Assembly (NCBI GenBank): GCA_965222225.1
Contig: CBDCTK010000002.1
Coordinates: 1,216,001-1,280,000, forward strand
Direction of reading: 5' to 3'
Origin: Candidatus Poribacteria bacterium
Lineage (GTDB): Bacteria > Poribacteria > WGA-4E > JAJDTR01
DNA length: 64,000 nt
Part shown: positions 19,264-51,193 of the stretch, in pieces
Numbering within the stretch: the stretch's first letter is position 1
Layout of the letters: each line of letters starts with the position of its first letter
Position numbers and translations under genes: made by a program
The notes under the pieces: model-generated
Told to the model about the DNA's origin: nothing
The model's database searches: none
The model's input: the letters and a program-made list of their open reading frames with translations, nothing else

Positions 19264-19296
19264 AGGATGAAGTATAGTAAAGCATTGAGGCAGCGT

Positions 19297-21664: not shown

Positions 21665-21988
21665 ATGTTTGGACCTAAGCATCAGTGGAAATGGCGAATA
21701 CCACTATTCATTGCGACTATATCAGTGCTTCTAGTGTCTGTTTACAAGATGACCACCCACAAGGCAACAGTCCCACAGCCAGTAGTTTATACAATGCCTG
21801 ATCTGGCATACCCGTATAAGCCACGTAATATTAACACAGGAAGGATTCGATTTTCCGACCCGATAGCACGTGCTAACAACAAACCAACCAGCACAACAAA
21901 TTTCGAATCCGAGAAAACAGACTCGGTAGCGATAGTCAATGGGGCGGGGAGCCGCCGGGGCGGGAGATTTGGGATTCTAAAGAACTGA
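21665..21988 (+). CDS. Hypothetical protein (N-terminal TM, possibly truncated)
   Basis: AAGGAG RBS, TM segment. Confidence 0.45.
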   Translation: MFGPKHQWKWRIPLFIATISVLLVSVYKMTTHKATVPQPVVYTMPDLAYPYKPRNINTGRIRFSDPIARANNKPTSTTNFESEKTDSVAIVNGAGSRRGGRFGILKN

Positions 21989-22260
21989 TGAGTATGGGTG
22001 GAAGGCTGGGGCAAGATCTCATACACTTGATTGACACTGCCAATTACGCCCAAGCGAAATCGAAATGCCTGAACGTGTATCGTGCTATCGACAGGTTCGC
22101 TAGGCGCACAAATCGTAACGCTACGGGGGTAAATTGACGATTTTGGAGGGGTGGGAAGGTGGTCCTGGTACTCGGAAGGGCGAAAAAAACGGCTAATTTG
22201 GAGCATGAGGAACGGATTATTCGCCACCGCGGAAGAATTCGATCGTGAAAGGAGCTGAAT

Positions 22261-22509
22261 ATGAAATTCCTTGCATCGTATCGCGTGGGCTGCGCATTAG
22301 CTTCAACGATTTTGTGTTCGTTGGTGTTAATCGCTTTGCTTGTGGTGCTTGCCAATTTTCTTGCGCCATACGTTGACGGGAACACTGACTATCCAGCAAT
22401 AATGCAACACCAAATTACTGGCTTACCTGCGGCGAAAGAATGCAATAATCCACAAATGGTGTTGCGACAAGAACTAACAACGCTATCCCACGAATCAAAA
22501 GCCTCCTGA
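22261..22509 (+). CDS. Hypothetical small membrane protein
   Basis: AAAGGAG RBS, hydrophobic N-terminus. Confidence 0.45.
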   Translation: MKFLASYRVGCALASTILCSLVLIALLVVLANFLAPYVDGNTDYPAIMQHQITGLPAAKECNNPQMVLRQELTTLSHESKAS

Positions 22510-22718
22510 AGAACACAAAAAATATTGCAGCAACTATGCCCATGTTTGTACATTGATCCTTCTTCATAATATAACTGTCAGTTATATCACGATCCATATA
22601 GCAACTGGTCACAGAAAAAACTAGAGGATTTCTGCCGGATAGGCACTCCAATGGTATAGAAAATGATGTCCATATCCTGTAGTCAAAGCCCTTATCTACT
22701 CATTGCACAATAAAGTGG

Positions 22719-22976
22719 CTACTTATATGCTTTGTCCCTCGCTTTAATGTCCGTCAAAAAGCAAATTTTCTCTTTCCTATTTATTCGGTATTTATATAGT
22801 CCGCGAAACCGCTTCTCTCTTAGCTTTTCTCCTACGAAAGGATTCACGGCAATTGTGTCTATTGCCTCCTCTATATCCTCCGACATTTCATGAAGTTTGG
22901 AACACCTCCTTTCAAATGTGCTTGTATATTCAACTTCATAAGGCTTGGAAGCCTTTCCACTTCTTTGTTTTCCCAT
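22719..22976 (-). CDS. RelE/ParE-family toxin (possibly internally deleted)
   Basis: YEVEYTSTFER...IAVNPFVGEKL....GLYKYRI pattern; overlaps the upstream antitoxin-like ORF. Confidence 0.7.
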   Translation of the reverse strand: MGKQRSGKASKPYEVEYTSTFERRCSKLHEMSEDIEEAIDTIAVNPFVGEKLREKRFRGLYKYRINRKEKICFLTDIKARDKAYK

Positions 22977-23196
22977 TTGCTATTTCCCATTCCGACCGTT
23001 CAAGGTCACTCATAAACTCTGAGTCACTAAGCAACTCAACATCCTCCAAATCAATAAGCGGAGGGTTTTCTGCTATAGCGGCAGGGGCAGGGCGTGTAAC
23101 AGCAGTCTCTCGTATGGCAGCGGAAGAACTTTGTTGTACTGTTCCACTTGAAGGACGTCGGCACACTGCTTCGTCTGCCTTATTTCGATTTTTCAT
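22936..23196 (-). CDS. Putative antitoxin
   Basis: Acidic C-terminus ELLSDSEFMSDLERSE..IANGKT typical of RelB/YefM-like partners; overlaps the toxin start. Confidence 0.55.
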   Translation of the reverse strand: MKNRNKADEAVCRRPSSGTVQQSSSAAIRETAVTRPAPAAIAENPPLIDLEDVELLSDSEFMSDLERSEWEIANGKTKKWKGFQAL

Positions 23197-23365
23197 TTTT
23201 TTCTCCGGTTGTCGTCTGTCAACGTTTTATAGAACCCCATTGAGCATTTACAAGTATAACTGAATGACTTAGCAAAAACAACAAAAAGCCGTAAAGAGGG
23301 GACGCCATTGCCGCAATGAGTAGGGAGATTGAAACGATGGGCGATTCGCTTCGTTGAGTGTATAC

Positions 23366-23590
23366 ATGACTACTCAAATGAACAAACCATTGACCATCAA
23401 GGAATATGCAGTTAGCCAGGGACTTTCGGAGACGACGGTGCGCCGTCGGATACGGGCTGGCGGGCTTGATGCTCGGATCGAACACGGTCGATATTTCATC
23501 TATGGACAGAACGGTGTCCATTCCGAAGAGGAAGCGAATATGCAAACCCGATCGGGGATTGCACCCATGAGTTTTGGCATTTCGTCGTAA
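23366..23590 (+). CDS. Excisionase/MerR-like helix-turn-helix protein (truncated)
   Basis: LTIKEYA...GLSETTVRRRIRAGGL winged-HTH pattern. Confidence 0.7.
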   Translation: MTTQMNKPLTIKEYAVSQGLSETTVRRRIRAGGLDARIEHGRYFIYGQNGVHSEEEANMQTRSGIAPMSFGISS

Positions 23591-23977
23591 GGATACCTCG
23601 TGTGTCGCGGGTGTGTTTGCCCTTGTATTCCGTTTGCATCCGATTAAGCGAGTGGATAGCAATCAAGGGAACGGATAGTGACCGATCAACTGAGTGGATA
23701 ACGAAGGCGTTAGGGATCTTATAGCGACTGCGATAGAGCACCCCCTCCCATAGAAGTTTCATCGCTCCGATAGCCCCAAAATAAAACCATCCAAACGACC
23801 GCCCTGCAATCTCGACTGGCAAAATGGGCCTCCGTTATGTTACAATACGCCACGTTGAAATCCTGTCGACCTGACCGTATTCCTCAGATATTCTACCTCA
23901 AATCCCCAATCTGAGCGATAGCGGAAGTTCAATCACCTCGCCATCAAACGTATCATCTCACTAAAGGAGGTATAACT

Positions 23978-24415
23978 GTGATCGAGTCAATCTGGGTAGA
24001 ACAGCGTCACATAGACGAAGGTGTCCCTCGCAACCTAAGCGACTGCGCAATCGCCCGTGCATTCTACGAAGCCACCGGTCTCCCGACAGTGGCGCATCCC
24101 AACATCATACGGATATTCTACGCCAAGGAGTTAATGGACCATTATCTCGCGGGTAACGAGGAGATGCGTCCGTATTGGCTAAAAGATTCCTGCGCCTACA
24201 ATGCGTCCCCTGCGGTAGGGAGCTGGATAAAGTCGTTCGATAGAAACAAGCCTTCTGTGCCTCCGCTCTATTTATGGTACGATTATCGGACCGGTAGATT
24301 AGAGACTGATTACATTCCACCAGCTATGAGGCGTTTTGAGAATGAGAAGGAAATGCTCAAGGGCACCGAGATAACCAAATCGGTCAAAGCCGGTACCAAT
24401 GCCGAATTGACCTAG
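23978..24415 (+). CDS. Hypothetical protein (paralog of 12803..13606)
   Basis: AAGGAGG RBS; HIDEG...CAIARA...WIKSFDR motifs. Confidence 0.7.
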   Translation: MIESIWVEQRHIDEGVPRNLSDCAIARAFYEATGLPTVAHPNIIRIFYAKELMDHYLAGNEEMRPYWLKDSCAYNASPAVGSWIKSFDRNKPSVPPLYLWYDYRTGRLETDYIPPAMRRFENEKEMLKGTEITKSVKAGTNAELT

Positions 24416-24815
24416 AAATCTTCTGTTTAAGTCGTAGGGTGCTATCAGTCGGCCGAATAGTGATTAGGATTTTCTATCCTAACCTATCCGCTCAGTTAAT
24501 CGATAGCGAACCCAACTCAATAGGAAATTCAGTCGATAGTTGTAGGTGCGCATTGCAATCAAACGACTGGACAGGGAGTAAGATTTCCTATCGCCTTCGC
24601 TCAGTTGATCGATAGAGTTCCCATAGAGATCCCACCAGCCTTTGAAAACCCTAACGCCAGAACAGGATAGGGGTGTAAAACCAGAAACCACCTCGCTCCG
24701 CATTGGGTTATTCGACTCCGGTTGAACTTGGGCAGCAGAACTTGCCTTGGTTTTCCTTATTTGTGATCTAGAGTAGCGTTAGCGCTTCATCGTGACATGG
24801 AAAGGAGTTTATACC

Positions 24816-25433
24816 GTGAAGATACTGGTTATCAGTTCTTGCACAAGCGATAAGCTAGATTGTGAAGCCTCCGCTGCAAAGATGTATACCGGACTTCAAC
24901 ATAGGTATTTAATGGAAGGATTGGAAAAGGTGCGGAACAGCTTTGGAGAACAAGCTATTGATTTAGCAATTATCTCCGCGAAGTATGGTTTGCTCAGTGA
25001 ATGCGATGTTATAGCTCCTTACAATTGTACATTTCCAGGTCTTAAGAAAAAGGAAGTCTTGGAGCGCAGTGACAGCCTTCATCTTCATGAACGGACGAAG
25101 GCGTTAATTACGCGCTATGATTTGGTTTTCTTTTTATTGGGTAAAGAGTACGTCCAAGCGTTGCAACTCCCTTTTGATGTTCCGGATACGGTTGCTCAGA
25201 TTTTTCTGCTCGGCCCAATAAATAGGAAGCTGATTCCTAATTTGCCAAATGTCTATTTTATTCCAGCTGGCAGAGATTTAGCGAAAACACTCGGTGTCAT
25301 GATAACTGCCCTTAAAGGAGTCATGTTTAAAAAATTGTGTTGCGTTGTATGTCGTGAGGGATTAGAGGTCTTTGAAATGATTAGGCAGGATCCACAGCTA
25401 GTCCTTGAGTTGGTGCATGATGGAGAGGGGTAA
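24816..25433 (+). CDS. DUF6884-like protein
   Basis: ILVISSCT..K...A..MYTG.QH, IISAKYGL....I.PY and LLGKEY motifs; AAGGAG RBS. Confidence 0.7.
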   Translation: MKILVISSCTSDKLDCEASAAKMYTGLQHRYLMEGLEKVRNSFGEQAIDLAIISAKYGLLSECDVIAPYNCTFPGLKKKEVLERSDSLHLHERTKALITRYDLVFFLLGKEYVQALQLPFDVPDTVAQIFLLGPINRKLIPNLPNVYFIPAGRDLAKTLGVMITALKGVMFKKLCCVVCREGLEVFEMIRQDPQLVLELVHDGEG

Positions 25434-25805
25434 AGCGTTGGGCTTTACTTGGTAACGCTTGATAGCCACGCAATGAAAGCGAAGTTTGTCTTAACTTCGA
25501 TGGTACTTGAGAATACATACATTAATCCACCGTCCATGACAACACCCATCGGGGTCTTGTTCTCGCTAATGGTTCGGTTGCCCCGTCATCCCCAAAGCCC
25601 ATTTCTACTACGAACGCGCAGGTCTTTAGAACCGAGAGCTCACCCACTGTTGGGCGGTGTACAACCACTGCGACACGCCACTGGTAATAGCGCTGCCTCG
25701 GGAGGTACAAGGCTTTGCCTTCGAGTCCGCACGCGGCCTGGCAGGGTTGCTCACAATTTAGTTTATTTTTGAGCCGACTAGACATTATTCCAAGAGGTGG
25801 TACTC

Positions 25806-26276
25806 ATGACTGAAGACCAATCCCAAAGCCGGTTATCCTACGGTAGAAGGCACGAATATATTGTAATAGCGGAATTGCTGCGACACGGATTTGATGTTTA
25901 CATACCTTTGGTGGATGACCGGCAGATTGACTGTATCATCCGGCGTGGCGACGACCACTATATTGACTTGCAACTTAAAGCGAGATCTAGGGATGGTAAC
26001 TTCGCTGCGATGAACATTGCCTGCCCTAGAAAAAATTACTTCTTCGTCTTCTATGTTGAGAGCATAAAAACTCGCTGGATTTTCCCCTCTCGCGATCTTG
26101 TTGAGGCAGCGAACCAAGACCGGACGGGAAGAAATACAGGAAAATTTAACATTTACCTCACTAGTCGTAGTGGTGGGGAAGTACGCCCCTCGCAAACATT
26201 CGACGAGTATATAGACTTCTCCGAATACTTAGGCATAGACAGAGAATTTGAACGCCTGCGAGGCCCCAAAGAATGA
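25806..26276 (+). CDS. PD-(D/E)XK nuclease-superfamily protein
   Basis: G..HE...AELL..GFDVY.P.VDD..IDC....IDLQLKAR pattern. Confidence 0.75.
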   Translation: MTEDQSQSRLSYGRRHEYIVIAELLRHGFDVYIPLVDDRQIDCIIRRGDDHYIDLQLKARSRDGNFAAMNIACPRKNYFFVFYVESIKTRWIFPSRDLVEAANQDRTGRNTGKFNIYLTSRSGGEVRPSQTFDEYIDFSEYLGIDREFERLRGPKE

Positions 26277-26545
26277 ATACAGGAGAACGTTTGTATGCAG
26301 TAATAAGCGGCTGCGTTTGCGTCATACTCGCCCTTGTCCTCTGCTCCTTCTTACCTCTCGGCGTTCAAAGCCAATCCGATAAATTAAGCGAAATCACATG
26401 TACTGCGCTTAGGGTGGTCAATAATCGGGGGGATGAAGTGGTTCGACTGCTGGCTGGCGAATACGGAGGACTCATAGGGATCTACGAGGAAAATGGGCAA
26501 CACGCACAAACAGCATTGGTAACTAAAGAAGGCGAGTCATTTTGA
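26273..26545 (+). pseudogene. Truncated secreted hypothetical protein
   Basis: Signal peptide plus EITCTALRVV; ends abruptly against a convergent ORF. Confidence 0.4.
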
Positions 26546-26731
26546 AGATAGATTTTTCTCAATTAGACCATTTACAGAGTTTATCAATGCGGTAAGCGCA
26601 GGAGTTACCGCGACTTGATGAAGACGGATTTCGGAAATTTCTTCCCCTATATTGGCAATATTAGTTTCGATGGTTTTAAGACGCTTATCAAGTTCTTCGC
26701 CGACAATGCGACGCAGACTTTCTTCGTTCAT
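26537..26731 (-). CDS. Small coiled-coil hypothetical protein
   Basis: 64 aa; ATGA overlap with 26728..26997. Confidence 0.5.
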   Translation of the reverse strand: MNEESLRRIVGEELDKRLKTIETNIANIGEEISEIRLHQVAVTPALTALINSVNGLIEKNLSSK

Positions 26732-26997
26732 GGTGAATGTCCTTTGCCCTTTTGCGTAGGTGGTGGGGCCGTCGTTGGATACTCCAGTAGGAAATAATTG
26801 CTATTTATAACTAGCCCGCGTTGTTTAAACAGAGCGCCCTGGAAAACGCCCTCTGTTTTTAGAACACGGGTAGCTTTTTCCAAATCGTCAAAAAAAGCAT
26901 TTCCACTCAACAACTTGGATTCAAACTCAAGGATTACCCCCTCGCGCTTACGGAGATACTCGTTCACGCGATGGAATTGTTCTAAAGCTGTATTCAA
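26728..26997 (-). CDS. Hypothetical protein
   Basis: AAGGAG RBS, 89 aa. Confidence 0.5.
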   Translation of the reverse strand: MNTALEQFHRVNEYLRKREGVILEFESKLLSGNAFFDDLEKATRVLKTEGVFQGALFKQRGLVINSNYFLLEYPTTAPPPTQKGKGHSP

Positions 26998-27248
26998 GCT
27001 ACTCCTTTGACGAGTTTCAGGATTTGATTATCACAATAGCGTTTTTTATAAGAAAACTTCGCGACAGAAAACCGACTTGTACCATTTCTCTAAAATTCAA
27101 GTGCATTGATTACAGTGGATCAAGTAAAGAAATCTGTGCGGAGAGAAGTAAGAAGCCGTATCTCCGCGCAAAGCAGGCGGGCAGGGGAATCTCTATCGCA
27201 CTCCCTGTTCGGTCATTTGATCGCTCCCACTGCCCTACCTCGCCGAAA

Positions 27249-29543
<2,295 letters not shown>

Positions 29544-29968
29544 TCAATAACTACAATTTCGGCTAACGTTGCCGCAATCGCTCAGGTTAAGAAATAGTGC
29601 AAAGACATTGAGTTTTCAAGAAAAAACTCGGTTTCTCTGAGCTGCCCTGCACTTTCTTATGAAGGGAATTTCCGCAATTTGTGAACCCGCAATGCGGGTT
29701 ACCCAAAGCAAATATGGCGTAGCCTGCATGTTCTCACAATACCGAGCTATTGTCAAGTATAAGTGTCGAATCGTCAATGCCAATTGTGCCATAATCCATA
29801 TAGCCGAATGAGCTATCTATCGGACTGGCAAATCCGTCCTCAGCCGGGCTATACTATTGAGTCGGGAAGTTTCTTCAACTGTCCAGATTCGTTAGATTGC
29901 CTAACCTAAATCTCCCCAATTTTTGTCTAAAGACTGTGGGTAAATTCACACCACCCACTGTCTTTCGA

Positions 29969-29997
29969 TTGACAACTTTACATAGGTCAAGTATAAT
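29969..29997 (+). promoter_or_regulatory. Consensus sigma70 promoter (homolog of 12684-12712)
   Basis: TTGACA, 17-bp spacer, TATAAT; flanks align with 12615-12722. Confidence 0.75.
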
Positions 29998-30099
29998 TTG
30001 GATGTAATGAATGCGTAGTGCCAGAGAAAGTGCGAACCTCTCAAATCTGTAGGCTCAAAAACGGCCCCGAAACGCAAACTTTTTTCTCCGTTAACATTT

Positions 30100-30241
30100 T
30101 GTTCACATCCATGACGCCACAAACCCACACCAGCAAAGGAAACCTTAATCTCGGAACATGTGAACACCCCCTCCAAATCGGCGCCTTGTTCACATTCTTG
30201 TACCTATTTTTTGCCCCTATTTTTCAAATGAAATGTGAACA
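30100..30241. repeat. Four alternately oriented TGTTCACA/TGTGAACA octamers (iteron-like)
   Basis: Copies at 30100, 30159, 30187 and 30234. Confidence 0.6.
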
Positions 30242-30702
30242 AACCATACCTAAACCTTCAAAAAAGTGCGATGAGTATACATTATTTCACGCCAGCCGCA
30301 CCTTCATACAGTCATTCTTGAGACACATTGGTCGCATATTTATGCGCGAAATCCCCAATTTCCCTTCTCTCCATTCACGGGGGTTCGATTATAATCACAT
30401 ATGAAATTAGTCATCTGCTTCTGGAACTCAAACGTCTATCAAAGCGTAATATAACAGCCTTGTAGGGTGGGCACTGCCCACCATTTTATCTTCATTCGAA
30501 CGCTGTGCCACCCTCCAAATACCGCGCCTCCCCGTTTGGAGGGCGTCGCGCTGGGGAGGTACCCAAAGATTAATCTTGGATTGGCGATTTCCGTTTTTTG
30601 CGGAACGAACCCAAACTGCCCAAGTAGGTTGGGATTGTTGAAACCCTCCCGTGCACACAGACACAAAACTCAGAAAGTAAGGCAGGCCGACACGGTGGGG
30701 TA

Positions 30703-30990
30703 ATGTCACAGCGACGATTCACATGGGATCCCCAAAAAAACCAAATCAATATCGGAAAACATCACATCAGTTTCCCCAGAGCGGCGAAGATTTTTGATGC
30801 ACCCCGAGTGGAAAAAGAAGATACGCGTCAAGACCATGGTGAAGAACGAATAATTGCGTTGGGACAAAGTGAAGGAAGAATCCTACGAGTAGTTTATACA
30901 CGGCGCAATTCGGTCATCCGAGTCATTTCGGCAAGGAGGGCGAAAAAGCATGAAAGAGCAGAATACATACGTCGAGTACACGCGTTCTGA
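30703..30990 (+). CDS. brnT: BrnT-family toxin
   Basis: FTWDP.KN..N..KH.ISF...F, EER...LG, VYT.R....RVISARRA motifs. Confidence 0.9.
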   Translation: MSQRRFTWDPQKNQINIGKHHISFPRAAKIFDAPRVEKEDTRQDHGEERIIALGQSEGRILRVVYTRRNSVIRVISARRAKKHERAEYIRRVHAF

Positions 30991-31225
30991 ACTGGACGCA
31001 ATCCCTGACGAGACCGACTGGGATCGTGTCGATGAACTGACCGATAAGGACATTGACGCGGCAGCGCGATCGGATGCGGACGATCCGCCAACAGAAGAAT
31101 CCTTCTGGAAGGATTCAACGGTCGTCGAGTCAGAAAACGCTGCGGGCCACACTCCCAGTTCAGGAGATGAGAAACCGAAATTGTCCGAGTTGAACCCAAA
31201 AGCGGACACGCTTGCTCAGTCCTAG
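30950..31225 (+). CDS. BrnA-like antitoxin lacking the C-terminal DNA-binding domain
   Basis: TDWDRVDELTDKDI..A...D.D.PP.EESFWK motif; overlaps brnT. Confidence 0.65.
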   Translation: MKEQNTYVEYTRSELDAIPDETDWDRVDELTDKDIDAAARSDADDPPTEESFWKDSTVVESENAAGHTPSSGDEKPKLSELNPKADTLAQS

Positions 31226-37839: not shown

Positions 37840-40443
37840 ATGTCCAGAATTGCATTCAGCACATTGATTCTGCTATTTGCATTGGCGAATAGTCTAATGC
37901 TAGCTCGCGCAGAAGAAGCAACGAACACAGAAAATCCCGTGGCGGATACTGTTGACCAAGCTCTAATTGTAAAAAAAATCACCTTTGAGGGGATAAAGAA
38001 CACCCCGGAAGACTTCTTTGAAATACTTATACAAACCAGAATTGGCGAGGAAATCTCTCCGGATCGTCTTTCCGAAGACATTAAGAACCTTTACAAAAAC
38101 ACCGGTTTTTTCTCTGACTTTGGCGATGCAGGAGAATCCCCGATTAGAGTTGAAGTTAAACCTGCTGAAGGCGGCGGTCTGGAAGTTATCTACAAACTCA
38201 TAGAAAGCCCAAAAATCGAAAGTGTCAAAATCATTGGAAATGAGCAGTTGAAGACGGGCAAGATTCAGGAAGCCATTACACTTAAACCCAGTGAGATTTA
38301 CAGCGATCAGCGCCGCTGGGAAAGTGAAAGAGCTATTCTTAACGTGTACAAGGAAAAAGGTTACTACCTTGCCACGATAAAGTCTGACACTAGTGTAGAT
38401 CGGGATACAAATACCATTGTGGCCACTTTTGAGATTAGCGAAGGTGAACGCATCAAGATTCAGGAGATTAATTTTGTCGACAACAGTAACATCCCTGAGA
38501 AAACGCTTAGCAAAAAGATTAAAACTCGTGTCGGTAAGCATTTCGATGAGAACCTGTTGGATGAAGACATGATCCTCTTGCGCCACTATTACCAAGATCA
38601 GGGATATGCGCAGATCGAGGTCGAAGGATATGAACATCGTCTTACTGCTGATAACACTGGACTGATAATTGATATTTCCGTTGATGAGGGCCCGGAATAT
38701 ATTATAGGCACCTATGACATCAATGTCCTGCATGCGAAGAAACCCGCCTTTTCAGAAGATAAGATTCGCGATATGCTAGATCCGATTGAAGGCGAAATCT
38801 TTGACCGAGGGACGTTTCAGGAGTCGATTGAAAAGATTCAAAAAGCCTACCAAGATAAAGGGTTCCTCCTGTCAGAGTTGTCGCCAGTTCCGCACTTTAA
38901 CGAAACAACGGCGATTGTTGATATCGCATTGGACATTAATGAAGGGGATGTCATCATCATCGAAAAAGTGGAGATTGACGGGTTGGAGAAAACCAAAAAG
39001 AATGTCGTCAAGCGAGAACTCGATCGAGTGAATCTCAAAAGTGGAGAATTTCTTGATGTAAAATCTCTGCGCAAAGCTCGCCAGAAGCTCTTCCAAATGG
39101 GCCCATTTATCCGAAATGTCGATTTTATACCTACTCCTAACGCCCTCGGAGAGAACAGTCGCGATCTCAAGGTTGAAATCACCGAAACGTCGAGGACCGG
39201 TATGTTCAGCCTCGGGGGCGGATACGGCACGGAAGGCGGCATCTTTGGCGTTGCGGAAGTCGGTGAAAATAACCTCTTTGGGCGCGCTTACCGCGTGCAC
39301 TTAAAAGGAGAACTAGGCACACGCGATCGTCACACCGCGGAACTCCGCTTCAACTCCCCCTGGATTTTCGGCACGCCGACACGTTTGAATGTTCGTCTTT
39401 ACAACACACGACGGCTCCACCGATATTACAATTCAATTATTTACCGTGACCGTGGATTGGACCGCTCCATTTATTCACGAAAAGGGGGTACGGTAACCGT
39501 AGGACGATCGATTGCCCAGGACATTGATATATCTGTTCGCCTCAGAAACGAGTATACACACGACAATCGCGGAGATCCCCTTTTCTCCATTGGTCTAAAT
39601 CACCAAGCAAGCCTAGATAGTGGTATCGTTACGGATGAGTTGGGGGCGGAATTTGAAAACGGTGGGAATGCTCTTTCTGAAAACGCCACTACTTCGATTT
39701 ACGAACTTGGTCGGGAATGGAGAGTTGAAGATCTTGAGGATGAAGCCGATGCTACGAAGAAATTCGTAATCCGTCAGGGGGAGGATGCATTAAACTTAGA
39801 TGTATATAGATCGGGACAGCATCCCTTCGATCGTACTGTTCGAAGTATCACATTCTTCCTATCCAGAGATACGCGTGATTATCTGACGAGCATCTACGAC
39901 CCGGTGTCCGGTTCCTTGAACACGCTTTCCTATGAACACGCTGGAGGTCTTCTAAGAGCCGAAAGTGACTTCCAGCGATATACTTTGGACTCGAGTTGGT
40001 TCCTAAGCACATGGAGTAATCACGTTTTTGCCTCTCACGCGAGGGCTGGCTTCTTGAATAGTCGAACCAGCGACGATTCGTTTCTTCGTTATGAACGTTT
40101 TCTCTTGGGCGGTATTGATACCGTCCGAGGATATGAAGACTACGAAATCATACCATCTAGCGGCAACTATAACGGCGGAAACAAGGTTTTCTATGCAAAC
40201 TTTGAATACCGTATTCCGCTCGGCTCACAGCTGACGGGTTCTGCATTCTTCGATATTGGTCAAGTTTGGGATGAATATCAGCCCAATATCTTCAAGGATA
40301 TCAATTTAAGGAAAGGTGCCGGCGTAGGAATTCGGTTCAACCTGCTAGGCATGTTGGCACGAGCCGAATGGGGATATGGATTTGACCGACCTGGAGGACA
40401 AAAGAGAGGTAAGCTCCATTTTACAATCGGTCCGGGCTTCTAG
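37840..40443 (+). CDS. bamA: Outer membrane protein assembly factor BamA
   Basis: Five POTRA-like repeats, VRGY motif, terminal GKLHFTIGPGF; upstream of skp. Confidence 0.93.
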   Translation: MSRIAFSTLILLFALANSLMLARAEEATNTENPVADTVDQALIVKKITFEGIKNTPEDFFEILIQTRIGEEISPDRLSEDIKNLYKNTGFFSDFGDAGESPIRVEVKPAEGGGLEVIYKLIESPKIESVKIIGNEQLKTGKIQEAITLKPSEIYSDQRRWESERAILNVYKEKGYYLATIKSDTSVDRDTNTIVATFEISEGERIKIQEINFVDNSNIPEKTLSKKIKTRVGKHFDENLLDEDMILLRHYYQDQGYAQIEVEGYEHRLTADNTGLIIDISVDEGPEYIIGTYDINVLHAKKPAFSEDKIRDMLDPIEGEIFDRGTFQESIEKIQKAYQDKGFLLSELSPVPHFNETTAIVDIALDINEGDVIIIEKVEIDGLEKTKKNVVKRELDRVNLKSGEFLDVKSLRKARQKLFQMGPFIRNVDFIPTPNALGENSRDLKVEITETSRTGMFSLGGGYGTEGGIFGVAEVGENNLFGRAYRVHLKGELGTRDRHTAELRFNSPWIFGTPTRLNVRLYNTRRLHRYYNSIIYRDRGLDRSIYSRKGGTVTVGRSIAQDIDISVRLRNEYTHDNRGDPLFSIGLNHQASLDSGIVTDELGAEFENGGNALSENATTSIYELGREWRVEDLEDEADATKKFVIRQGEDALNLDVYRSGQHPFDRTVRSITFFLSRDTRDYLTSIYDPVSGSLNTLSYEHAGGLLRAESDFQRYTLDSSWFLSTWSNHVFASHARAGFLNSRTSDDSFLRYERFLLGGIDTVRGYEDYEIIPSSGNYNGGNKVFYANFEYRIPLGSQLTGSAFFDIGQVWDEYQPNIFKDINLRKGAGVGIRFNLLGMLARAEWGYGFDRPGGQKRGKLHFTIGPGF

Positions 40444-43215: not shown

Positions 43216-44235
43216 ATGGAAAAACAAAGTCATGCTCGGTCTGGGATGCAGAATCAATTCTCACGTTCCATCCTCCCGTTTTTTGATTACCTGATAGTTC
43301 TCCGCCCCACCCTCCTATTTCCTGTCTGGACACTCGTACTTCTAGGACATTATCATGGAACAGCGCACATCTCTCATTCCTTAAAATTTGAGTTTCTAGC
43401 TGCTGAAATTCCAATCTACTTGAATTTGGACGCTCGCGTCTGGGTTACGCTTTGCTTGTACTCAATGTTGGCAAGTGCCGGTTATATCATAAACCAGATA
43501 GCAGATAAAGAAACGGATTTGGCAAATGACAAGCTATATCTGGTTGCCAACGGATACGTAAAACTACCGCTGATTAAATTGGAGGCGGCTGCATTATTTC
43601 TTGCCTCGATTGTGTGGGCGGTTGTGTGGTTTCACCGTAGTTGGGCATATCTCGCGCTGATTGCACTATCCACTGTTCTGGGGGTGATTTACTCCGTCCA
43701 ACCGTTTCGATTGAAAGGCAAACCGATACTTGACCTTCTGGCAAACGCGATTGGATATGGGGGTATAGCATTCCTTCTCGGATGGGCGGCAACCGCCAAA
43801 TTAAACGCAGAAGCGCTACAGCGAGCTATCCCTTACATGTTCTGTGTCGGAGCCGCTTTTGTTAATACAACGCTTCCGGATCTGAAAGGAGACTCGGCGC
43901 ATGGCGATCGAACAACCGGAGTTTTATTGGGCGTGCGGCGAGCGTGTCAATTGAGTCTATTCCTCTTGGTCATCGCAATACTGTCGGCGTGGATTGTCAA
44001 AGATGCCATTGCGCTTATTTCCGGTTTGGTCTCCGTTCCGTTCTTCGTATACATGAACATCACGCCGAAACGGCAAGCTATCATTCTGGCAACTCGTGTC
44101 GGCATCCTTATGCTCTCGCTTGTTGCTTGCATTCTCATTCCGCCCTATTTCATCTTATTCGGGTGTGCCTTGCTATTTGTTCGTTGGTACTACAGCGCTC
44201 GATTTGACATCGTATATCCCGGCTCTAAAGCATGA
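43216..44235 (+). CDS. UbiA-family prenyltransferase (divergent)
   Basis: Multi-TM; NQIADKETD..N, YS..PFRLKG.P and PDLKGD...GDRT motifs. Confidence 0.85.
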   Translation: MEKQSHARSGMQNQFSRSILPFFDYLIVLRPTLLFPVWTLVLLGHYHGTAHISHSLKFEFLAAEIPIYLNLDARVWVTLCLYSMLASAGYIINQIADKETDLANDKLYLVANGYVKLPLIKLEAAALFLASIVWAVVWFHRSWAYLALIALSTVLGVIYSVQPFRLKGKPILDLLANAIGYGGIAFLLGWAATAKLNAEALQRAIPYMFCVGAAFVNTTLPDLKGDSAHGDRTTGVLLGVRRACQLSLFLLVIAILSAWIVKDAIALISGLVSVPFFVYMNITPKRQAIILATRVGILMLSLVACILIPPYFILFGCALLFVRWYYSARFDIVYPGSKA

Positions 44236-44308
44236 TATTCAAACTCAAAACCCTCTTAGGTATCACGGTCATGCACCCATTTCACGCCTTGCGCATTAAA
44301 GTAGAAGA

Positions 44309-45169
44309 ATGTCTTCGTCAGTAGCGCGACTATGCGCTATTCTAGAACTCTCGCGCCCAGCTAATGGTGTTATCGCTTTTGTCTCGGTTATGCTAGGCGG
44401 GCTTTTCGCCGTCAAGGGACAAATAAATCGCCTTGATGATGTTGGGTTGTTGATGGCGGCATTTTCCGCACTACTACTCTTGGCGGCGGGCAACAGCCTC
44501 AATGACTACTGCGACTCTGAAATTGACCGCACCAATAAACCTCGACGCCCAATCCCTTCGGGGCGGATTCAGCGGAGAGAGGCCTTAATCGCCGCCATAC
44601 TCTTAATGGGAGCCGGAATAACGCTCGGGTGTCTTGTCAATCGACACATAGCGATAATCGTTGTGGGCGTTTCCACAAGTTTAATCGGCTATGCACTCTG
44701 GCTCAAACGCACCCCGATGATTGGAAATCTCCTTGTAGGCTTTCTCACCGGACTGACTTTCATCGCGGGGGGTGCGGTTTTTGAGTCCTTTCGAGGGACA
44801 CTTGTACCGGCGACCTTTGCACTCCTGTTTACCACAGCGCGTGAGATTGTCAAAGATATTGAAGACACTGAAGGTGACTTCAAAAACAACGCGAACACAA
44901 TCGCGGTCATCAGCAAATCTGTGGCTGCCTTGATAGCTTCAATTTTTATGGGAACTGTTATCCTATTTAGTCCGGTTCCATATCTGTTGGGCTGGTATTC
45001 ATGGCGTTACATGCTCATGGTTTTTATTGGCGTTGATCTGGTTCTAATGTACCTCCTTGTTCAACTCTGCAAAGATGCCTCAAAAGAAAATAGTTTGCGT
45101 ATCCAGAAGTGGATGAAGTGGGACATCTTGGTCGGACTCGGTGCAATATGCGTTGGCGACTTTGTATAG
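44309..45169 (+). CDS. Digeranylgeranylglyceryl phosphate (DGGGP) synthase-like UbiA prenyltransferase
   Basis: GNSLNDYCDSEIDRTNKPRRPIPSG, LKRTPMIGN and AREIVKDIEDTEGD motifs, characteristic of the archaeal DGGGPS subfamily. Confidence 0.85.
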   Translation: MSSSVARLCAILELSRPANGVIAFVSVMLGGLFAVKGQINRLDDVGLLMAAFSALLLLAAGNSLNDYCDSEIDRTNKPRRPIPSGRIQRREALIAAILLMGAGITLGCLVNRHIAIIVVGVSTSLIGYALWLKRTPMIGNLLVGFLTGLTFIAGGAVFESFRGTLVPATFALLFTTAREIVKDIEDTEGDFKNNANTIAVISKSVAALIASIFMGTVILFSPVPYLLGWYSWRYMLMVFIGVDLVLMYLLVQLCKDASKENSLRIQKWMKWDILVGLGAICVGDFV

Positions 45170-45199
45170 TACAGCGTAGTTTTCGTAGGTTTCTGACAA

Positions 45200-46561
45200 A
45201 TGGCGGTTGAAACCAAAGACTACGAAACAGTGATTAACTTTCTCCAATCATCTGACTCAAGGGAATGTCTTGCCCAGATTCCTGCGCGCCCCGAATCGAC
45301 AAGGTCGACGCAAGCAACCTCCGATTTGGGAGCATTGTTGAAAGAAGATTACGATTACCAAAAGCGGACTGGCGAATGGCGGCGCGACTATCAGATTTTC
45401 ATTGCCGGTTGGGTGCAGCTTGAGGGAGTAATGGTACTCACTTCCGCTCAAGAGTTGGACGCGGACTTATTGGTTGAAATTTCTGCCACCAACGAACGTG
45501 CGCTGAGAGATTTACTGTTGTCATTTCCCCGAACGAAGGTTGGGTGCTTTCGTTGCGGCGACAGATGGATGTTTAACCCTCTAGGAGAAATTCTCGACGG
45601 TCATGAAATGCCCGACTATGGTGACTGCTGTTTTCTCGGAATTAAACGAGGAAGCAAAAATGTCTCTATCGTTTCTCCTACCGAGAAGCAATTTGAAAAT
45701 GAGCGCGGAAACCAACGAACGATTAAGCGGAAGGACCCTGTTATCTCTGAATTCCGAACCCTTGCTTCTCTGGGTGGAAAGCTGAAACTGTCAAAATTTA
45801 CGGTTGAAGGGTCAACCCTTGCAAGACGCGCGATTGATGACGGTTTGCCAGTAGAAAAGGTACTTTTTACTCCCGATTTGCTATCAGATTCTGGTGGTAA
45901 AAATCTCCTGAATCGTATACATTCGGAGAACCTGATGTATTATCAGGTGAATGATGGAGTGATGGGAACGCTTACGACTACAAGGCCTGTGCCATCAGTC
46001 ATTGCTGCGGTGCAAATGAACTATCGTGACGCGGATGACTTTCATCTGACCTCAGAGACCGTAATACTAATCACAGATAGCGTTGCGAACCCGGACAATC
46101 TTGGGATGGTTCTGCGTACCGCCGATGCCGCCGGTGTGGATGGAGTTCTTGTTATTGGTGACGGTGCAAGCCCTTTCCACAGGAATTGCATTAGGGCGTC
46201 TAGAGGCGCGGTTGGGAGAATCCCTCTGTTATATTGTTCGGATGTCGATCGCTATCTCGCAAGATTAATAGGTGCCGGTTTTAATCTTATAGCAGCTACT
46301 TCCAAATCGGACAACCACCTATATGACCTTGAACTCGAAGTTCCTTTGGCATTTGTCGTTGGCAACGAAAATGAAGGAATTCGGAAAACAATATTAGATC
46401 TTTGCACAAATCTTGTCTCCATCCCAATGGCACCGGGGCAATCTTCCTTAAATGTGGGGGTTGCAACTGGTGTGCTACTGTACGAGCTTGTACGCCGCCG
46501 CAATTTGTCCGGGAACGGCAAACAGCTTGTTATCGGTCAGACGCTGCACGGAGATACATAG
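45200..46561 (+). CDS. TrmH/SpoU RNA 2'-O-methyltransferase with N-terminal extension
   Basis: NPDNLG.VLRTA.AAG, VGNENEG and IPM.....SLNV motifs. Confidence 0.88.
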   Translation: MAVETKDYETVINFLQSSDSRECLAQIPARPESTRSTQATSDLGALLKEDYDYQKRTGEWRRDYQIFIAGWVQLEGVMVLTSAQELDADLLVEISATNERALRDLLLSFPRTKVGCFRCGDRWMFNPLGEILDGHEMPDYGDCCFLGIKRGSKNVSIVSPTEKQFENERGNQRTIKRKDPVISEFRTLASLGGKLKLSKFTVEGSTLARRAIDDGLPVEKVLFTPDLLSDSGGKNLLNRIHSENLMYYQVNDGVMGTLTTTRPVPSVIAAVQMNYRDADDFHLTSETVILITDSVANPDNLGMVLRTADAAGVDGVLVIGDGASPFHRNCIRASRGAVGRIPLLYCSDVDRYLARLIGAGFNLIAATSKSDNHLYDLELEVPLAFVVGNENEGIRKTILDLCTNLVSIPMAPGQSSLNVGVATGVLLYELVRRRNLSGNGKQLVIGQTLHGDT

Positions 46562-47002
46562 ATGCCTGGACCGACATGGATAATATGTGACCCGTGAATT
46601 ACTTATTGGAAATCCATCGGTTTTCGATAAATTTGAATTGCTCAGCCTTTCGCGCCAGCGGGGATCAAATGAGCGGATAGCGAGTGCGATAGAGATTCCT
46701 GTATGCGCAAAGTTACGTCGAATCAACCCGCAGAACCCAAGCGTAGGATAGCCAATCATCAAATTAAGATAAAATCCCTGCATGAGACTTTGTAAGTCCC
46801 GCCGTGGATTAAGCCGCCGAATTGGGAGCGCGATTGAAGCCCTAAAGGCGTAAAACGGGCAACAACAAAAACATGGGCAAGTCCTTCCTCAAATGACCAA
46901 ATATGGCATTGCCACCCACAAGTCAAGCAGGTTGTCATTCAACTGGATGATGCATAAAAAAATTCATGGACTATAAGTCAGCCGCGCAAACTGGAGATTG
47001 CC

Positions 47003-47946
47003 ATGAGTAAACGATTTAATATTTATATCCCCAGTGGGGACAGCGGGGTGGAAGTACATCGAATGAAGAAATGGCTTCGTCAACCTCGCGAACACGTTCC
47101 TGAAGGAATAGATGTCAATAGGCAGAACTCTTATCAGTTGCGCTCAACCTTAAAACACCAGGGCTGGGTGGACCGGGAAACAGAAACAGAGGTGCGGCTA
47201 ATATCACCTGAATCCGACACTCTGTCAAGGGTTGACAAGTTGTTTGGACAATTCGAGAGAAGACGATATAACGTTTATATTCCAAGTGGGGATAGTGGGG
47301 TGGAAGTACATCGCATGAAGGAATGGCTTCGTCAACATCCCGAGCACATTCCTGAAGGGTTGGATGTCGGCGAGTACGACGCTTTTGCGGTGCATACAGC
47401 TTTGCAAAGGCAAGGTTGGGTGGATCAGGAAACAGAATCAGAAGTGCGGCTGATTTCACCAGATTCCGACACCGAATTAAGGGTTGCCAAATTGTTTGGG
47501 CAATCCGAGGACGAGGAGACCAACTTAGACGGCGATCCCGTCTTCACTTTAGAGCATCAACTTCGGGATTTCTTCGCTGAAAACATCAATACGATTCTTG
47601 AAATGGTAGGCATCTGAGGTTATATGAGGACGAAGAAGGGCAAGAGGGTGTTGAATATCAAACAGTAACAGGTCGAATTGATATCCTTGCGATAGACGAT
47701 GATGGCGCGTTCTACGTCATTGAGTTTAAGCGCGATCGGGCAAGTGATAAAGTTGTGGGCCAGGTCGCCAGATATATGGGTTGCATCCAGCGCACCATAG
47801 CGGTAGGAAGAGAGGTAAACGGGGTCATCGTGGCAAAGGATATTGATCGCAATCTGAGATATGCCGCATCGGTAATTCCACAGGTACATCTCTTCGAATA
47901 TCAAATGGAATTCCACCTGAATGAAGCCGATGAAATTGGATCCTAA
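47003..47946 (+). CDS. NucS/DUF91-like PD-(D/E)XK endonuclease with a tandemly duplicated N-terminal domain (frameshift near 47600)
   Basis: LE.QLRDF...N, then in the shifted frame GRIDILAID...VIEFKR...SDKVVGQVARYMG; N-terminus repeats NxYIPSGDSGVEVHRMKxWLRQ twice. Confidence 0.75.
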
Positions 47947-48975
47947 CAATTATAGCACCTTACGCACTAAAGATTCCGTCTCCAACAGGGTCGTAGGTTG
48001 GGTTGATCGGGAATCCATTAATAATTGCTCGTCCCCTTAACACATATTTCAGCCCCTTGAAAACTTAACATACGTATGGTATAATTCGCCTATCAAAGGA
48101 ACGAATAGATTAAGCGAACGAACAGTGAGTGCGATGAAGATTTCAATGCGATAGAGTTCCCATAGAAAATCTTGATAATGAATCCTGATTCATACAATTA
48201 CCAAAATACGCCATCCTTACACATTATTCTTCCCAATAAACAACTACAGGATGGGGGGGGTAAAAACTATTCGCACAAAATCGCAGATTTTCGCAGAACG
48301 CTGCATTGCCTTCCAACCCGTGTCATTACGGGTTTCCAAGGCGATTTTTACTAGTAGCTATAGTATGCGACCTGCGGAACTGTAACTCCAAATTGAATCT
48401 CGGAAAGTCAGGTCGAAAAACAGGATAGCCATCAAACAAACGAAGTTTGACCGCGTTGCGCTGACGATGGCAAATCCCCGTGCGTTAGCGCTCCTGGAAT
48501 ACAGGCGAAACGCATCTAAATTTACGACTTTACAAGAAAGAAATCCGGGCTAAGTTTGTAATGCTTTTCTTGGGGATCGTAGGTTGGGTTGAACGGCAAT
48601 CCGTCAATAATCGTTATTCTTGGAGAAGTTTTCGAGTGCCCACTTTACATGTATGTGCCAAAATTTGAGTGAAACCCAACAATAATCGTACATTCTACCA
48701 CCATGAGACGTCCTTTGTAATTGGATGCGATTCTCCGGCGATTTTTGTGCCCCTATGGACAATGGAGAAAACTTGGGTTAATAGTTAAAGGCAGGCATTC
48801 CAAACGGTATACTGGACGACTCTACCGTTAGATTTTTCAAACATGCGGACAACACCAGAAGTCATGACAGGTAGGGAGGGGATGATTTTATTGAGGCCAC
48901 ATTGCGAAGATTCCCGCCTGTCCCATATATATTAGAGGAGTCCCTTGCGCTTCAATTTCAACGGACGTAAAATCA

Positions 48976-49194
48976 ATGATTCTAATTAACGAAGAACTGT
49001 GCAGCTATTGTGGGGCATGTGTCGCTGTCTGCCCGGAAAATATCATCGATTTAGTTGACATTTATCTGAAAATAGATCAATCGAAGTGCACCGACTGCAT
49101 GCGTTGTGTTAAAGGTTGCCCGGTTGGTGTGCTTGCTCTGGAACGCAATGGTAAGGTATATTATCCAGCATATGAAGGGCGGGGATTATTTTAA
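48976..49194 (+). CDS. 2x[4Fe-4S] ferredoxin
   Basis: [12 protein letters not shown] and [12 protein letters not shown] motifs; TAATG overlap with the reductase start. Confidence 0.93.
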
Positions 49195-50386
49195 TGTTCC
49201 ACTCCGAGTTTGATGTTATTGTCGTCGGTGCTGGCCCGGGAGGTTCGATTGCCGCGAAGGTTGCCGCCGAAAATGGCTTAAGTGTTCTGCTCTTGGAGAA
49301 ACGCCAAGAAATCGGTTCCCCCGTTCGCTGAGCGGAAGGTATCGGCACAGCGTCGCTGTGTGAATTTATTCAGCCGCATCCATCTTGGATATCCCAGCAG
49401 ATCAACGGCGGCCGACTGTTTTCGCCTAACGAAACAGCAGCTACACTTGACTTCCCGAGAGCGGGATATGTGCTTGAGCGCAAAGTCTTCGATCGCATAC
49501 TCGCGGAGATGGCAGGAGATGCCGGCCCGAGTTGCTAGTGAAAGCGAGGGTAACTACGGTCACCAAGTCGGACGACGGAGTAGTCAACGGCGTAACCTTC
49601 CGTCATTCTGGTCGTGATTACACCTGTAAAGCCAAAACGGTGATTGCCGCAGATGGAATTGAATCGCAGGTTGCGCGTTGGGCGGGAATTGATAGTACTC
49701 ACGATTTGCGCGATGTGGATATCTGCGCCCAATATTTGGTTTCAAACATTGACATCATTCCGGATCACTGTGACTTCTATGTCGGACGCGAGATTGCTCC
49801 ACGCGGATACATCTGGGTTTTTCCAAAGGGGAAAAACATTGCCAATGTAGGCGTTGGCATTGGGGGCGCCATATCCGGAAAGGGCGGCAAACTCGCCATT
49901 GATTACTTGAATGAGTTTGTAAAACGAAAATTCCCCGATGGCAAAATCTTGGCTCAAGTCGTCGGCTGTGTGCCAGTCGGCGATAGCCTACCCGACATAG
50001 TTGGCGATGGAATCCTCCTAATAGGTGATGCCGCACACCACAGCGATCCCATCTCCGGCGGCGGAATCGCTAACGCAATGTACTCAGGTCAATTCGCAGC
50101 AGAAGCCGCAGTCGAGGGAATCCGAATCGGCGATGTTTCCGCCAAGACTCTTAGCTCCTATGAGAGGCGTTGGAACAAACAAATAGGGAAGCATTTCAAG
50201 CATATATGTCGTATACGTGACGGGCTGTTTAAGTTCAGTGATGACACGTTTGATAGGTGTGCTGAAGTCATATCGAAAATGCCCAGTGAAAAAGTTACCA
50301 TGACACAAATCTTCAAAACCGTGTTAAAACACCAGCCCCGATTACTGTTGGAATTAAGACATTTGGTTCTGGCGGGCTGGGTTTAG
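49194..50386 (+). CDS. Geranylgeranyl (DGGGPL) reductase; in-frame TGA at the conserved Cys and a 1-bp frameshift near 49525
   Basis: [17 protein letters not shown]...[14 protein letters not shown]...[10 protein letters not shown], then [15 protein letters not shown] and [17 protein letters not shown]; archaeal DGGR signatures. Confidence 0.88.
49345..49361 (+). promoter_or_regulatory. Candidate bacterial SECIS hairpin
   Basis: GCACAGC-GTC-GCTGTGT stem-loop; loop begins with G, 20 nt after the TGA at 49329-49331. Confidence 0.5.
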
Positions 50387-50446
50387 TAAGGATGCAGCGC
50401 TTAGAACGTTGGCATTTGGTGATTGAACCGAATCATTCCTATTATA

Positions 50447-51193
50447 ATGCAATCTGATTTTGTCCTCAACTATCTTCAAGAGACCATTACGAGATATAAA
50501 GCGGGATATTTAGTTCTTATCGATCCCGATCAATACTCCGTCTCGGACTGTGTCGAATCAGCTCATCAAGCAGAAGATGCGGGTACCGATGCACTTCTTC
50601 TAGGTGGCAGCTTTCTGACTACCGATCTCCAACCCGTAGCGGAGACCCTGAAAAGAGAAACACGGTTACCAATCATCCTCTTCCCCGGCGACGCAATGCA
50701 CCTAACGCCTCATGCGGACGCCATTTTATACCTCAGTCTTATAAGCGGGCGGAACGCCAACTTTCTAATCGGAGAGCAGGTTAAGGCTGCGCCTAGGCTA
50801 CGACAGTACGGTATTGAATCGATTCCAACGGGATATATGTTGATTGATAGTGGTCGCCAAACATCGGTTGGATTCATGAGTGGGACAACGCCATTGCCCC
50901 GTGACAAGTTCGATCTCGCTTGGGCGCATGCTCTTGCCGCTGAATATCTCGGTATGCAGTTGGTCTATCTCGAAGCCGGCAGTGGAGCAGAATATCCCGT
51001 CCCTGATCGGATGATTGCCGCAGTGAAGGAACACATCAGTATCCCGGTTCTTGTTGGCGGTGGAATCACTACACCTGAAATTGCTGCTCAAAAAGTCGAA
51101 GCCGGTGCAGATTTCATCGTGACAGGTACGGCCATCGAAAATAGTCGCTCTTTGACGGTGATGAAACAGTTCGCCGACGCGGTTCACGGGTAG
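50447..51193 (+). CDS. Geranylgeranylglyceryl phosphate synthase (group II GGGPS)
   Basis: LIDPD, GGS, LFPG, SLISGRN, PTGY, YLEAGSGA and VGGGI motifs. Confidence 0.92.
   Translation: MQSDFVLNYLQETITRYKAGYLVLIDPDQYSVSDCVESAHQAEDAGTDALLLGGSFLTTDLQPVAETLKRETRLPIILFPGDAMHLTPHADAILYLSLISGRNANFLIGEQVKAAPRLRQYGIESIPTGYMLIDSGRQTSVGFMSGTTPLPRDKFDLAWAHALAAEYLGMQLVYLEAGSGAEYPVPDRMIAAVKEHISIPVLVGGGITTPEIAAQKVEAGADFIVTGTAIENSRSLTVMKQFADAVHG

Follow-up and report, generated by a model that had tools for sequence, protein, structure and literature searches.

Archaeal-type lipid genes in bacteria bear on the 'lipid divide' and on mixed membranes, and the case tested so far is that of Cloacimonetes, whose GGGPS (geranylgeranylglyceryl phosphate synthase) and DGGGPS (digeranylgeranylglyceryl phosphate synthase) gave an archaetidylglycerol-type lipid in Escherichia coli; in that study the genomes are described as being without CarS and glycerol-1-phosphate dehydrogenase (G1PDH) (Villanueva et al. 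2020, PMC7852524). The same uncertainty over G1PDH was noted for phyla of the Fibrobacteres-Chlorobi-Bacteroidetes (FCB) group by Coleman et al. 2019 (PMC6431249). Here we describe a comparable gene set in a 64,000-nucleotide stretch (the window) of contig CBDCTK010000002.1, positions 1,216,001 to 1,280,000, from the Candidatus Poribacteria bacterium assembly GCA_965222225.1; it comprises two UbiA-family prenyltransferases (UbiA1 and UbiA2), a ferredoxin, a flavin-dependent geranylgeranyl reductase (GGR) and a GGGPS. As in the Cloacimonetes and FCB systems, GGGPS, DGGGPS-type and Euryarchaeota-like GGR genes stand beside genes for bacterial lipids, neither CarS nor a convincing G1PDH was found, and the bacterial CdsA is the proposed substitute. 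Poribacteria differ from those systems in having a single cluster placed after bamA-ompH-lpxD, a second UbiA, a dedicated ferredoxin, and what we read as selenocysteine (Sec) in GGR.

We give a probability of about 0.75 to the joint reading, namely that the order to which the window's genome belongs carries an archaeal-type ether-lipid module with a selenocysteine GGR. The gene set itself is real, conserved and bacterial in context, and it adds Poribacteria to the bacteria with archaeal-type lipid genes. In the pathway suggested by family membership, which predicts the substrates, a ferredoxin as the electron donor and the end-product lipid alike, GGGPS would join geranylgeranyl diphosphate (GGPP) to glycerol phosphate, UbiA2 would add the second chain, GGR, fed by the upstream ferredoxin, would saturate the chains, and UbiA1 would act as an accessory prenyltransferase; because CarS was not found, lipid activation would have to run via the bacterial CdsA. 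The UGA codon of GGR, at the cysteine (Cys) position next to the flavin, would be decoded as Sec by SelB and tRNA-Sec via a 17-nt hairpin.

The GGR gene reads ...EIGSPVR, TGA, AEGIGTASL... in one frame. We searched 40 relatives drawn from four families within a single order; 25 of them have a full-length GGR orthologue, and the TGA stands at the same codon in all 25, with 45 in-frame codons before it and an open frame of 351 or 352 amino acids after it. A scan of 176 Poribacteria species genomes (orthologue threshold E <= 1e-40) recovered GGR in 56 of them: 39 relatives have TGA at the site, all of them in the window's order (39/39 of those covering the site, one also with a TAG); 13 have no stop, all outside that order and all with a Cys codon (13/13); and three are partial matches that end short of the site; the last one is the window's own genome. 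Among 80 public GGR loci fetched with a protein profile, 36 have TGA and 42 have TGT or TGC (five more distant Poribacteria-like loci, three from Chloroflexota, and 34 from Methanosarcinales and Methanotrichaceae), the site not being found in the other two; every archaeal and Chloroflexota locus in which the site could be located (37/37) has a Cys codon. When aligned with PDB 3oz2 (Thermoplasma acidophilum), the residue in question, U46, falls on the Cys of SPVRCGEG, and in 3atq, the GGR of Sulfolobus acidocaldarius, on that of KPCGDAV. This is the catalytic Cys47, which a review describes as conserved throughout the archaeal GGRs and as essential to the enzyme of S. acidocaldarius, with a suggested role in electron transfer or flavin tuning (PMC10821996). 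In the window's order it is replaced by TGA, which, read as Sec, would be a chemically analogous exchange.

The distribution of the two states is mirrored in a gene tree of GGR (76 rows, quick IQ-TREE run, LG+G4; L075, L078, L104 and L105 were missed by the motif or length filter), in which the 34 Sec rows form one clade with a support of 99 in the SH-like approximate likelihood-ratio test, requiring one state change. Under a midpoint root, Cys-type Poribacteria fall outside this clade as a ladder, followed by Chloroflexota and then archaea, and since every outgroup has Cys, a change from Cys to Sec is the simplest direction. The codons upstream of the TGA behave as coding sequence: comparing 43 codons pairwise among 35 sequences gave 15,707 differences, 81% of them synonymous, and one residue is kept in 22 of 43 varying columns (locus L084, which holds an N, was excluded from this count and from the hairpin alignment below). 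Both sides of the TGA are under purifying selection. The contigs of four sequencing runs are identical at the codon. TGA is not reassigned: it also terminates ordinary frames, 9 of the window's 33 long ones among them, and in two relatives, loci L026 and L028, it ends the GGR gene itself.

Public gene calls treat this TGA as a stop. Among the matches listed from a collection of 5.8 billion proteins, GGR homologues of at least 68% identity cover 71-87% of the query and are 283-346 amino acids long (except P0173, 398 amino acids), and full-length matches are at most 67% identical; public gene callers therefore stop at the GGR TGA. This, and the frameshift in the window's own copy, could be taken to mean that the codon is a true stop, marking a pseudogene or split gene across the order, or that it is read through as tryptophan or another residue. 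We consider this very improbable. The TGA is kept in every same-order relative that covers it, both of its sides are under purifying selection, the hairpin described below covaries in a genome with full Sec machinery, and a protein begun after the TGA would be without the GxGxxG FAD-binding motif; readthrough as tryptophan is further opposed by the Cys of the homologues at this site and by the service of TGA as an ordinary stop elsewhere. We thus read the GGR of the window's order as a selenoprotein with Sec at codon 46, on the grounds of a TGA that is conserved, homologues with Cys, a hairpin that covaries, Sec machinery in the genome and purifying selection; selenium insertion is predicted from these features.

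The hairpin starts 13 nt after the UGA, and the first base of its loop is an invariant G. In an alignment of the window with 35 loci, 97.1% of cells are paired, three of the seven pairs show compensatory double changes (CG/UA, AU/GC and CG/AU/UA), the covariation score was reached by 0 of 500 shuffles, and registers slid along the alignment pair at 25-56%. Six or seven of the seven pairs are kept in 36/36 TGA genes, compared with one to five, in register, in 12 Cys homologues chosen from the 42 (five Poribacteria-like, three Chloroflexota and four archaeal). Its size and spacing resemble those of the minimal E. coli selenocysteine insertion sequence (SECIS). The hairpin thus covaries and is specific to TGA genes, making it a candidate bacterial SECIS.

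The genome encodes the corresponding machinery, with selA (523.9 bits), selB (343.1 bits) and tRNA-Sec (selC; 76.1 bits, anticodon tca) side by side at C2:1590469-1593758, and selD at C2:2933348-2934274 (L133); all four score above their cut-offs, and SelA was found in 41/41 related genomes. Within its own frame selD, too, has a TGA (...VECAG-U-ASKL...), after which comes a hairpin of 8 bp and a GGG loop, and it is by these features a second selenoprotein gene of the genome. With bacterial selenoproteins that have Cys homologues, SelD of this genome among them, GGR shares a UGA where the catalytic Cys would stand and, a short way downstream, a hairpin whose loop is rich in G, as well as a genome that encodes selA, selB, selC and selD; it differs from them in being truncated by public gene calls and unreported as a selenoprotein family in the literature found. 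No report of a Sec-containing GGR appeared in our literature search, which left most subscription journals outside its reach, and the GGR family was not found among the selenoprotein papers, the one that also concerns Poribacteria being on [NiFe] hydrogenases. As far as that search reaches, the selenocysteine GGR is a candidate new selenoprotein family.

GGR is the sole GGR_cat match in the genome, scores 93.5 bits against a Pfam cut-off of 27 for PF22578, and has the FAD-binding GxGxxG motif as GAGPGG and the PxxYxWxFP motif, as defined for GGRs in PMC10821996, as PRGYIWVFP. Its best NCBIfam models are NF041160 and TIGR02032; the best family matches are digeranylgeranylglycerophospholipid reductases (DGGR), and MenJ reaches only 25-42 bits. 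The full-length GGR of a congener matches 3oz2, the digeranylgeranylglycerophospholipid reductase of T. acidophilum, at E 7e-82. Both motifs and the GGR catalytic domain are shared with 3oz2 and 3atq, and the alignment to 3oz2 is full length; the Poribacteria enzyme differs from these two in having the predicted Sec in place of Cys47 and in scoring under equivalog cut-offs. The nearest archaeal GGRs, from Methanosarcinales and Methanotrichaceae, are 43-46% identical over the whole protein.

The stop of the ferredoxin gene overlaps the GGR start codon (TAATG), and GGR has a ferredoxin match directly upstream in most Poribacteria, in 3/3 Chloroflexota and in 29/35 archaeal loci. The same arrangement of a small ferredoxin gene directly before a DGGR-type GGR is found in Methanosarcina acetivorans, whose GGR requires the ferredoxin of its own locus according to the review (PMC10821996); the archaeal enzymes of this type have Cys at the active site, unlike the bacterial GGR described here with its predicted Sec. 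Proteins of 465-538 amino acids in which an N-terminal Fer4 domain is fused to GGR also occur (P0199, P0203-P0212 and others, about 50% identity), some of them labelled Candidatus Poribacteria. Such natural fusion supports a ferredoxin-GGR partnership, and the ferredoxin is the predicted electron donor of GGR.

GGR-family enzymes serve several substrates (PMC10821996), and the enzyme might instead act on another polyprenyl compound, whether the menaquinone side chain, GGPP on the way to phytyl, or a polyprenol. In keeping with this, GGR occurs in 56 and GGGPS in 144 of the 176 Poribacteria genomes, and several loci of family f2 have ferredoxin-GGR away from GGGPS and UbiA2. We nevertheless regard another substrate as unlikely, given the best-matching families and the low MenJ scores, the position of GGR between UbiA2 and GGGPS in many loci, and the fact that its closest non-bacterial homologues are ferredoxin-linked GGRs of Methanosarcinales and Methanotrichaceae. 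The rarity of GGR relative to GGGPS implies that saturation by GGR is dispensable or replaced in most species.

The GGGPS named in an earlier, sequence-only reading of this DNA is borne out by scores above both NCBIfam cut-offs for GGGP synthase (TIGR01769, 218.7 against 161.55; NF003198, 289.7 against 247) and by its nearest solved structures, which are GGGPS entries at E 4.7e-55 to 7.5e-45, heptaprenylglyceryl phosphate synthase matching at only 1.1e-9. We propose that this single-copy gene encodes the enzyme for the first ether bond, with a predicted specificity for glycerol-1-phosphate and GGPP. It is present in 144 of the 176 species genomes and in 28 of 31 genera.

For UbiA2, which had been read as a DGGGP-synthase-type enzyme, DGGGPS is by far the best structural match: Methanocaldococcus jannaschii 6m31 aligns at E 1.7e-36 over residues 6-283, the full length, the next PDB match being chlorophyll synthase at E 3.7e-10. 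The Asp-rich motifs NDYCDSEID and KDIEDTEGD both align to 6m31, the next unrelated NCBIfam UbiA families reach at most 87 bits, and Poribacteria homologues are already named DGGGP synthase in public sources. Its scores stay below the DGGGPS equivalog cut-offs, as given below, and we propose that UbiA2 is DGGGPS-like and would form the second of the two ether bonds. Of the related genomes, 34 of 41 have UbiA2, as do 0/7 of genus g6. UbiA1 has weak NCBIfam matches (at most 53 bits) and a best PDB match of E 2e-4, and its nearest ESM Atlas clusters are UbiA proteins of WOR-3, Fibrobacterota and Zixiibacteriota. It occurs in 22 of the 41 genomes and, where present, always adjoins UbiA2 on its upstream side, and we propose that it is a divergent accessory prenyltransferase of the module. 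A recent duplication of UbiA2 was considered as its origin and rejected (22% identity, E 0.18).

For the remaining steps, the sequence-only reading had placed G1PDH and CarS outside the window and had called for a genome search. That search, in a genome of 5.70 Mb in two contigs that is 94.87% complete, gave no match to CarS (PF01864) and no convincing G1PDH. Of the four Fe-ADH_2 matches found, AroB accounts for one and alcohol-dehydrogenase-like proteins for two; the fourth match (L013:1297-2376) was rejected as a dedicated G1PDH on its low score and its lack of co-occurrence with GGGPS. A GGPP synthase, likewise sought, has a candidate in one of two polyprenyl synthases, which is best matched by IdsA and GGPP_syn (229 and 218 bits) but remains under their cut-offs. 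CdsA and three PlsC-family acyltransferase matches are present, and no match to PlsY (PF02660) was found in the genome.

Several of these results weigh against the joint reading. CarS was not found, and the fourth Fe-ADH_2 protein is only distantly G1PDH-like (NF002022, 82.8 bits against a cut-off of 413; PDB 5fb3, E 1.7e-13), with a distribution over 41 genomes that is unlike that of GGGPS: it occurs in genus g6, a genus without GGGPS, and no copy was found in g3, g4, g5, g9 or g10, where GGGPS is present. UbiA2 scores below the DGGGPS equivalog cut-offs (NF009521, 206.3 against 296; NF009523, 221.5 against 269; NF009522, 146.6 against 353), and GGR falls below that of NF041160 (96 + 188.6 bits in two halves, against 780); for the subfamily model TIGR02032 each half (90.5 and 135.3 bits) is below the cut-off of 158.8 and their sum is above it. 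GGR is far rarer than GGGPS, and the window's own copy is without one G after 49526, which breaks its frame; the contigs of sequencing run X1 (0.99 of the words, depth 76.7) match the window at the deletion. As to the hairpin, Rfam gave no match at E <= 0.1 over 46400-49400, a range covering it and the spacer upstream, and the single-sequence fold of the region is unexceptional (z -1.6). Finally, ferredoxin, GGR and GGGPS lie together on a 2328-nt contig of an RNA library, which speaks for the cluster, though contigs of this kind are no proof of transcription.

In view of the first of these points, the cluster may yield a prenyl-glycerol ether that is minor or specialised, perhaps built on glycerol-3-phosphate and akin to the Bacillales derivatives of heptaprenylglyceryl phosphate, or the enzymes may degrade archaeal lipids, rather than making a bulk archaeol-type membrane phospholipid. 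The failure to find CarS or a convincing G1PDH, the bacterial lipid genes that are present (three PlsC-family genes, CdsA and LpxD), and the same doubt raised for FCB bacteria without G1PDH by Coleman et al. 2019 (PMC6431249) all speak for a product of this kind, which we regard as possible though doubtful. Against it, GGGPS lies far nearer to GGGPS structures than to heptaprenylglyceryl phosphate synthase, 144 of the 176 species genomes retain the module, and the Cloacimonetes enzymes made their archaetidylglycerol-type lipid in E. coli despite the lack of CarS and G1PDH in those genomes, according to PMC7852524. The archaeal-type ether-lipid pathway with saturation that had been suggested for this locus thus stands as to GGGPS, a DGGGPS-like UbiA2 and a ferredoxin-GGR pair, and is weakened by the failure to find CarS and a convincing G1PDH and by the frameshift in this copy of GGR.

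Because GGR is interrupted by the 1-nt deletion, saturation is not assured in this genome. The frame after the TGA is uninterrupted over 351 amino acids in 9/9 congeners and intact in 25/25 relatives, and the contigs of runs X3, X4 and X17, from three studies, have the extra G behind 49526 (X3 and X17 are on record as RNA libraries; X4 is probably DNA). On these grounds, the deletion could well be a sequencing or assembly error in an organism with an intact Sec-GGR, and the few-contig assemblies of relatives do show isolated breaks in differing genes: UbiA2 is broken at residue 151 in G003, GGGPS is split in G008, and in G006 the G1PDH-like gene lies in three pieces. Set against this are the agreement of X1, which may be the source of the window and is for that reason not independent, and the sequence of the site, which is not a homopolymer. 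Systematic loss of GGCGCC was considered as a cause of the frameshift and is unsupported, since the genome-wide count of this motif (2018 observed against 2101 expected) shows no depletion; as to programmed frameshifting, no slippery heptamer was seen at the site by sequence inspection alone. Real loss is also plausible because GGR persists only as remnants in G010, G036 and G040, the remnant in G010 having stops and lying beside an intact GGGPS. On balance we lean towards a real and recent inactivation of GGR, and we put an error at somewhat short of an even chance.

The fullest form of the proposal, that one Poribacteria order builds part of its membrane from saturated archaeol-type lipids, with saturation made selenium-dependent by a Sec flavoenzyme, is one that we advance tentatively and with more doubt than confidence. 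If true, GGR would be a new selenoprotein family and, to our knowledge, the first selenoprotein in membrane-lipid synthesis, selenium supply would influence lipid saturation, and archaeol-like biomarkers in Poribacteria-rich samples would be partly bacterial. Since Sec would replace an essential Cys, the Sec-GGR offers a natural experiment on the role of this residue, be it electron transfer or flavin tuning, and it may lead to an alkene reductase of higher activity for biotechnological use. Surveys of the pathway that rely on public gene calls, which truncate at the TGA, may record the GGR of the window's order as incomplete or overlook it.

The genes and their common plus-strand orientation, as first read from the sequence, were confirmed by an open reading frame (ORF) listing and by Pfam and NCBIfam scans (Table 1), as was the bacterial setting of the archaeal-type genes. 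The cluster is flanked on the plus strand by BamA, OmpH, LpxD and a polysaccharide deacetylase on its 5' side and by HrcA, GrpE and DnaJ on its 3' side, and G+C content is even around it (0.467-0.477 in 2-kb windows from 42 to 54 kb). The guess of a Poribacteria lineage was right, the nearest public sequences being Candidatus Poribacteria bacterium. A contig chimeric with archaeal DNA is ruled out, because the cluster is conserved and syntenic, with its bacterial flanks, in many Poribacteria. Two parts of the original picture need amending. The set is co-oriented, but its two UbiA genes are cut off from ferredoxin-GGR-GGGPS by a SpoU gene and a 2.4-kb spacer; and the proposed ferredoxin-reductase-GGGPS operon has its genes present and adjacent, but the reductase is interrupted by the in-frame TGA and by the frame change near 49526.

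Table 1 Features of the lipid-gene cluster and its surroundings, in positions of the window
Feature	Position	Strand	Basis or description
BamA	37840-40443	+	ORF listing and Pfam/NCBIfam scans
UbiA1, divergent UbiA-family prenyltransferase	43216-44235	+	Pfam UbiA, 70.8 bits
UbiA2, DGGGPS-like prenyltransferase	44309-45169	+	Pfam UbiA, 138.2 bits
SpoU/TrmH-family RNA methyltransferase gene	45200-46561	+	Pfam SpoU_methylase, 122.6 bits
Spacer, repeat-rich, largely non-coding	46562-48975	no strand	2.4 kb between SpoU and ferredoxin genes
Ferredoxin, 2x[4Fe-4S], 72 amino acids	48976-49194	+	Fer4 families; two CxxCxxCxxxCP motifs
GGR, DGGR-type flavoenzyme	49194-50386	+	PF22578, FAD_binding_3
In-frame TGA, GGR codon 46, read as selenocysteine (U46)	49329-49331	+	Aligned with essential archaeal Cys47
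17-nt hairpin, candidate bacterial SECIS	49345-49361	+	7 bp and 3-nt loop
Frameshift in GGR, one G missing relative to all relatives	49526-49527	+	Run contigs, congeners
GGGPS, group-II-like (proposed)	50423-51193	+	PcrB, 156.9 bits

In six loci of other families (L059, L063, L064, L066, L074 and L084) the order OmpH-LpxD-UbiA1-UbiA2-ferredoxin-GGR-GGGPS runs without gaps, with a BamA match visible upstream in L063, L064 and L066. PcrB scores over its cut-off in 34 of the 41 related genomes, genus g6 having none beyond one weak match (E 4.9e-4); since this genus probably represents a single loss, the co-absence of UbiA2 and PcrB there is weak as statistics. GGGPS being present in 144 of 176 genomes, nearly the whole of a further phylum has the module as a trait, in a conserved cluster placed beside outer-membrane biogenesis genes. 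We found no report of Poribacteria with these lipid gene names in the literature searched, the supplementary taxon tables of PMC7852524 and PMC6431249 lying outside that search. The stretch is held by 20 of 24 listed sequencing runs, from 11 studies, six of which runs are on record as RNA.

The SpoU gene, which is RlmB-like but below the NCBIfam cut-off, sits between the UbiA2 and ferredoxin genes in the window's genus; the six loci of other families have no SpoU match there, and the gene is probably not part of the lipid pathway. In six congener loci the distance from the end of the SpoU match to the ferredoxin gene is about 150-400 nt (L045-L048), about 0.5 kb (L049) and about 1.9 kb (L050). 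The spacer in the window contains a dispersed repeat of about 42 nt (about 46658-46699), with copies at dozens of places in the genome, and other dispersed segments of 100-250 nt. It also holds a 204-aa ORF (47003-47617) without a family match in the Pfam and NCBIfam scans, inside which lies a 253-nt internal tandem duplication.

Two further observations concern base composition and coding density. The tetramer GGCC is rare genome-wide (7155 observed against 20909 expected, a ratio of 0.34, with other 4-mers and 6-mers at 0.6-1.1), which looks like restriction avoidance. The part of the window from about 19000 to 31000 is poor in ORFs of at least 110 amino acids, and a 764-aa ORF on the minus strand (27249-29543) lies within a G+C-richer patch (0.556 at 28-30 kb).

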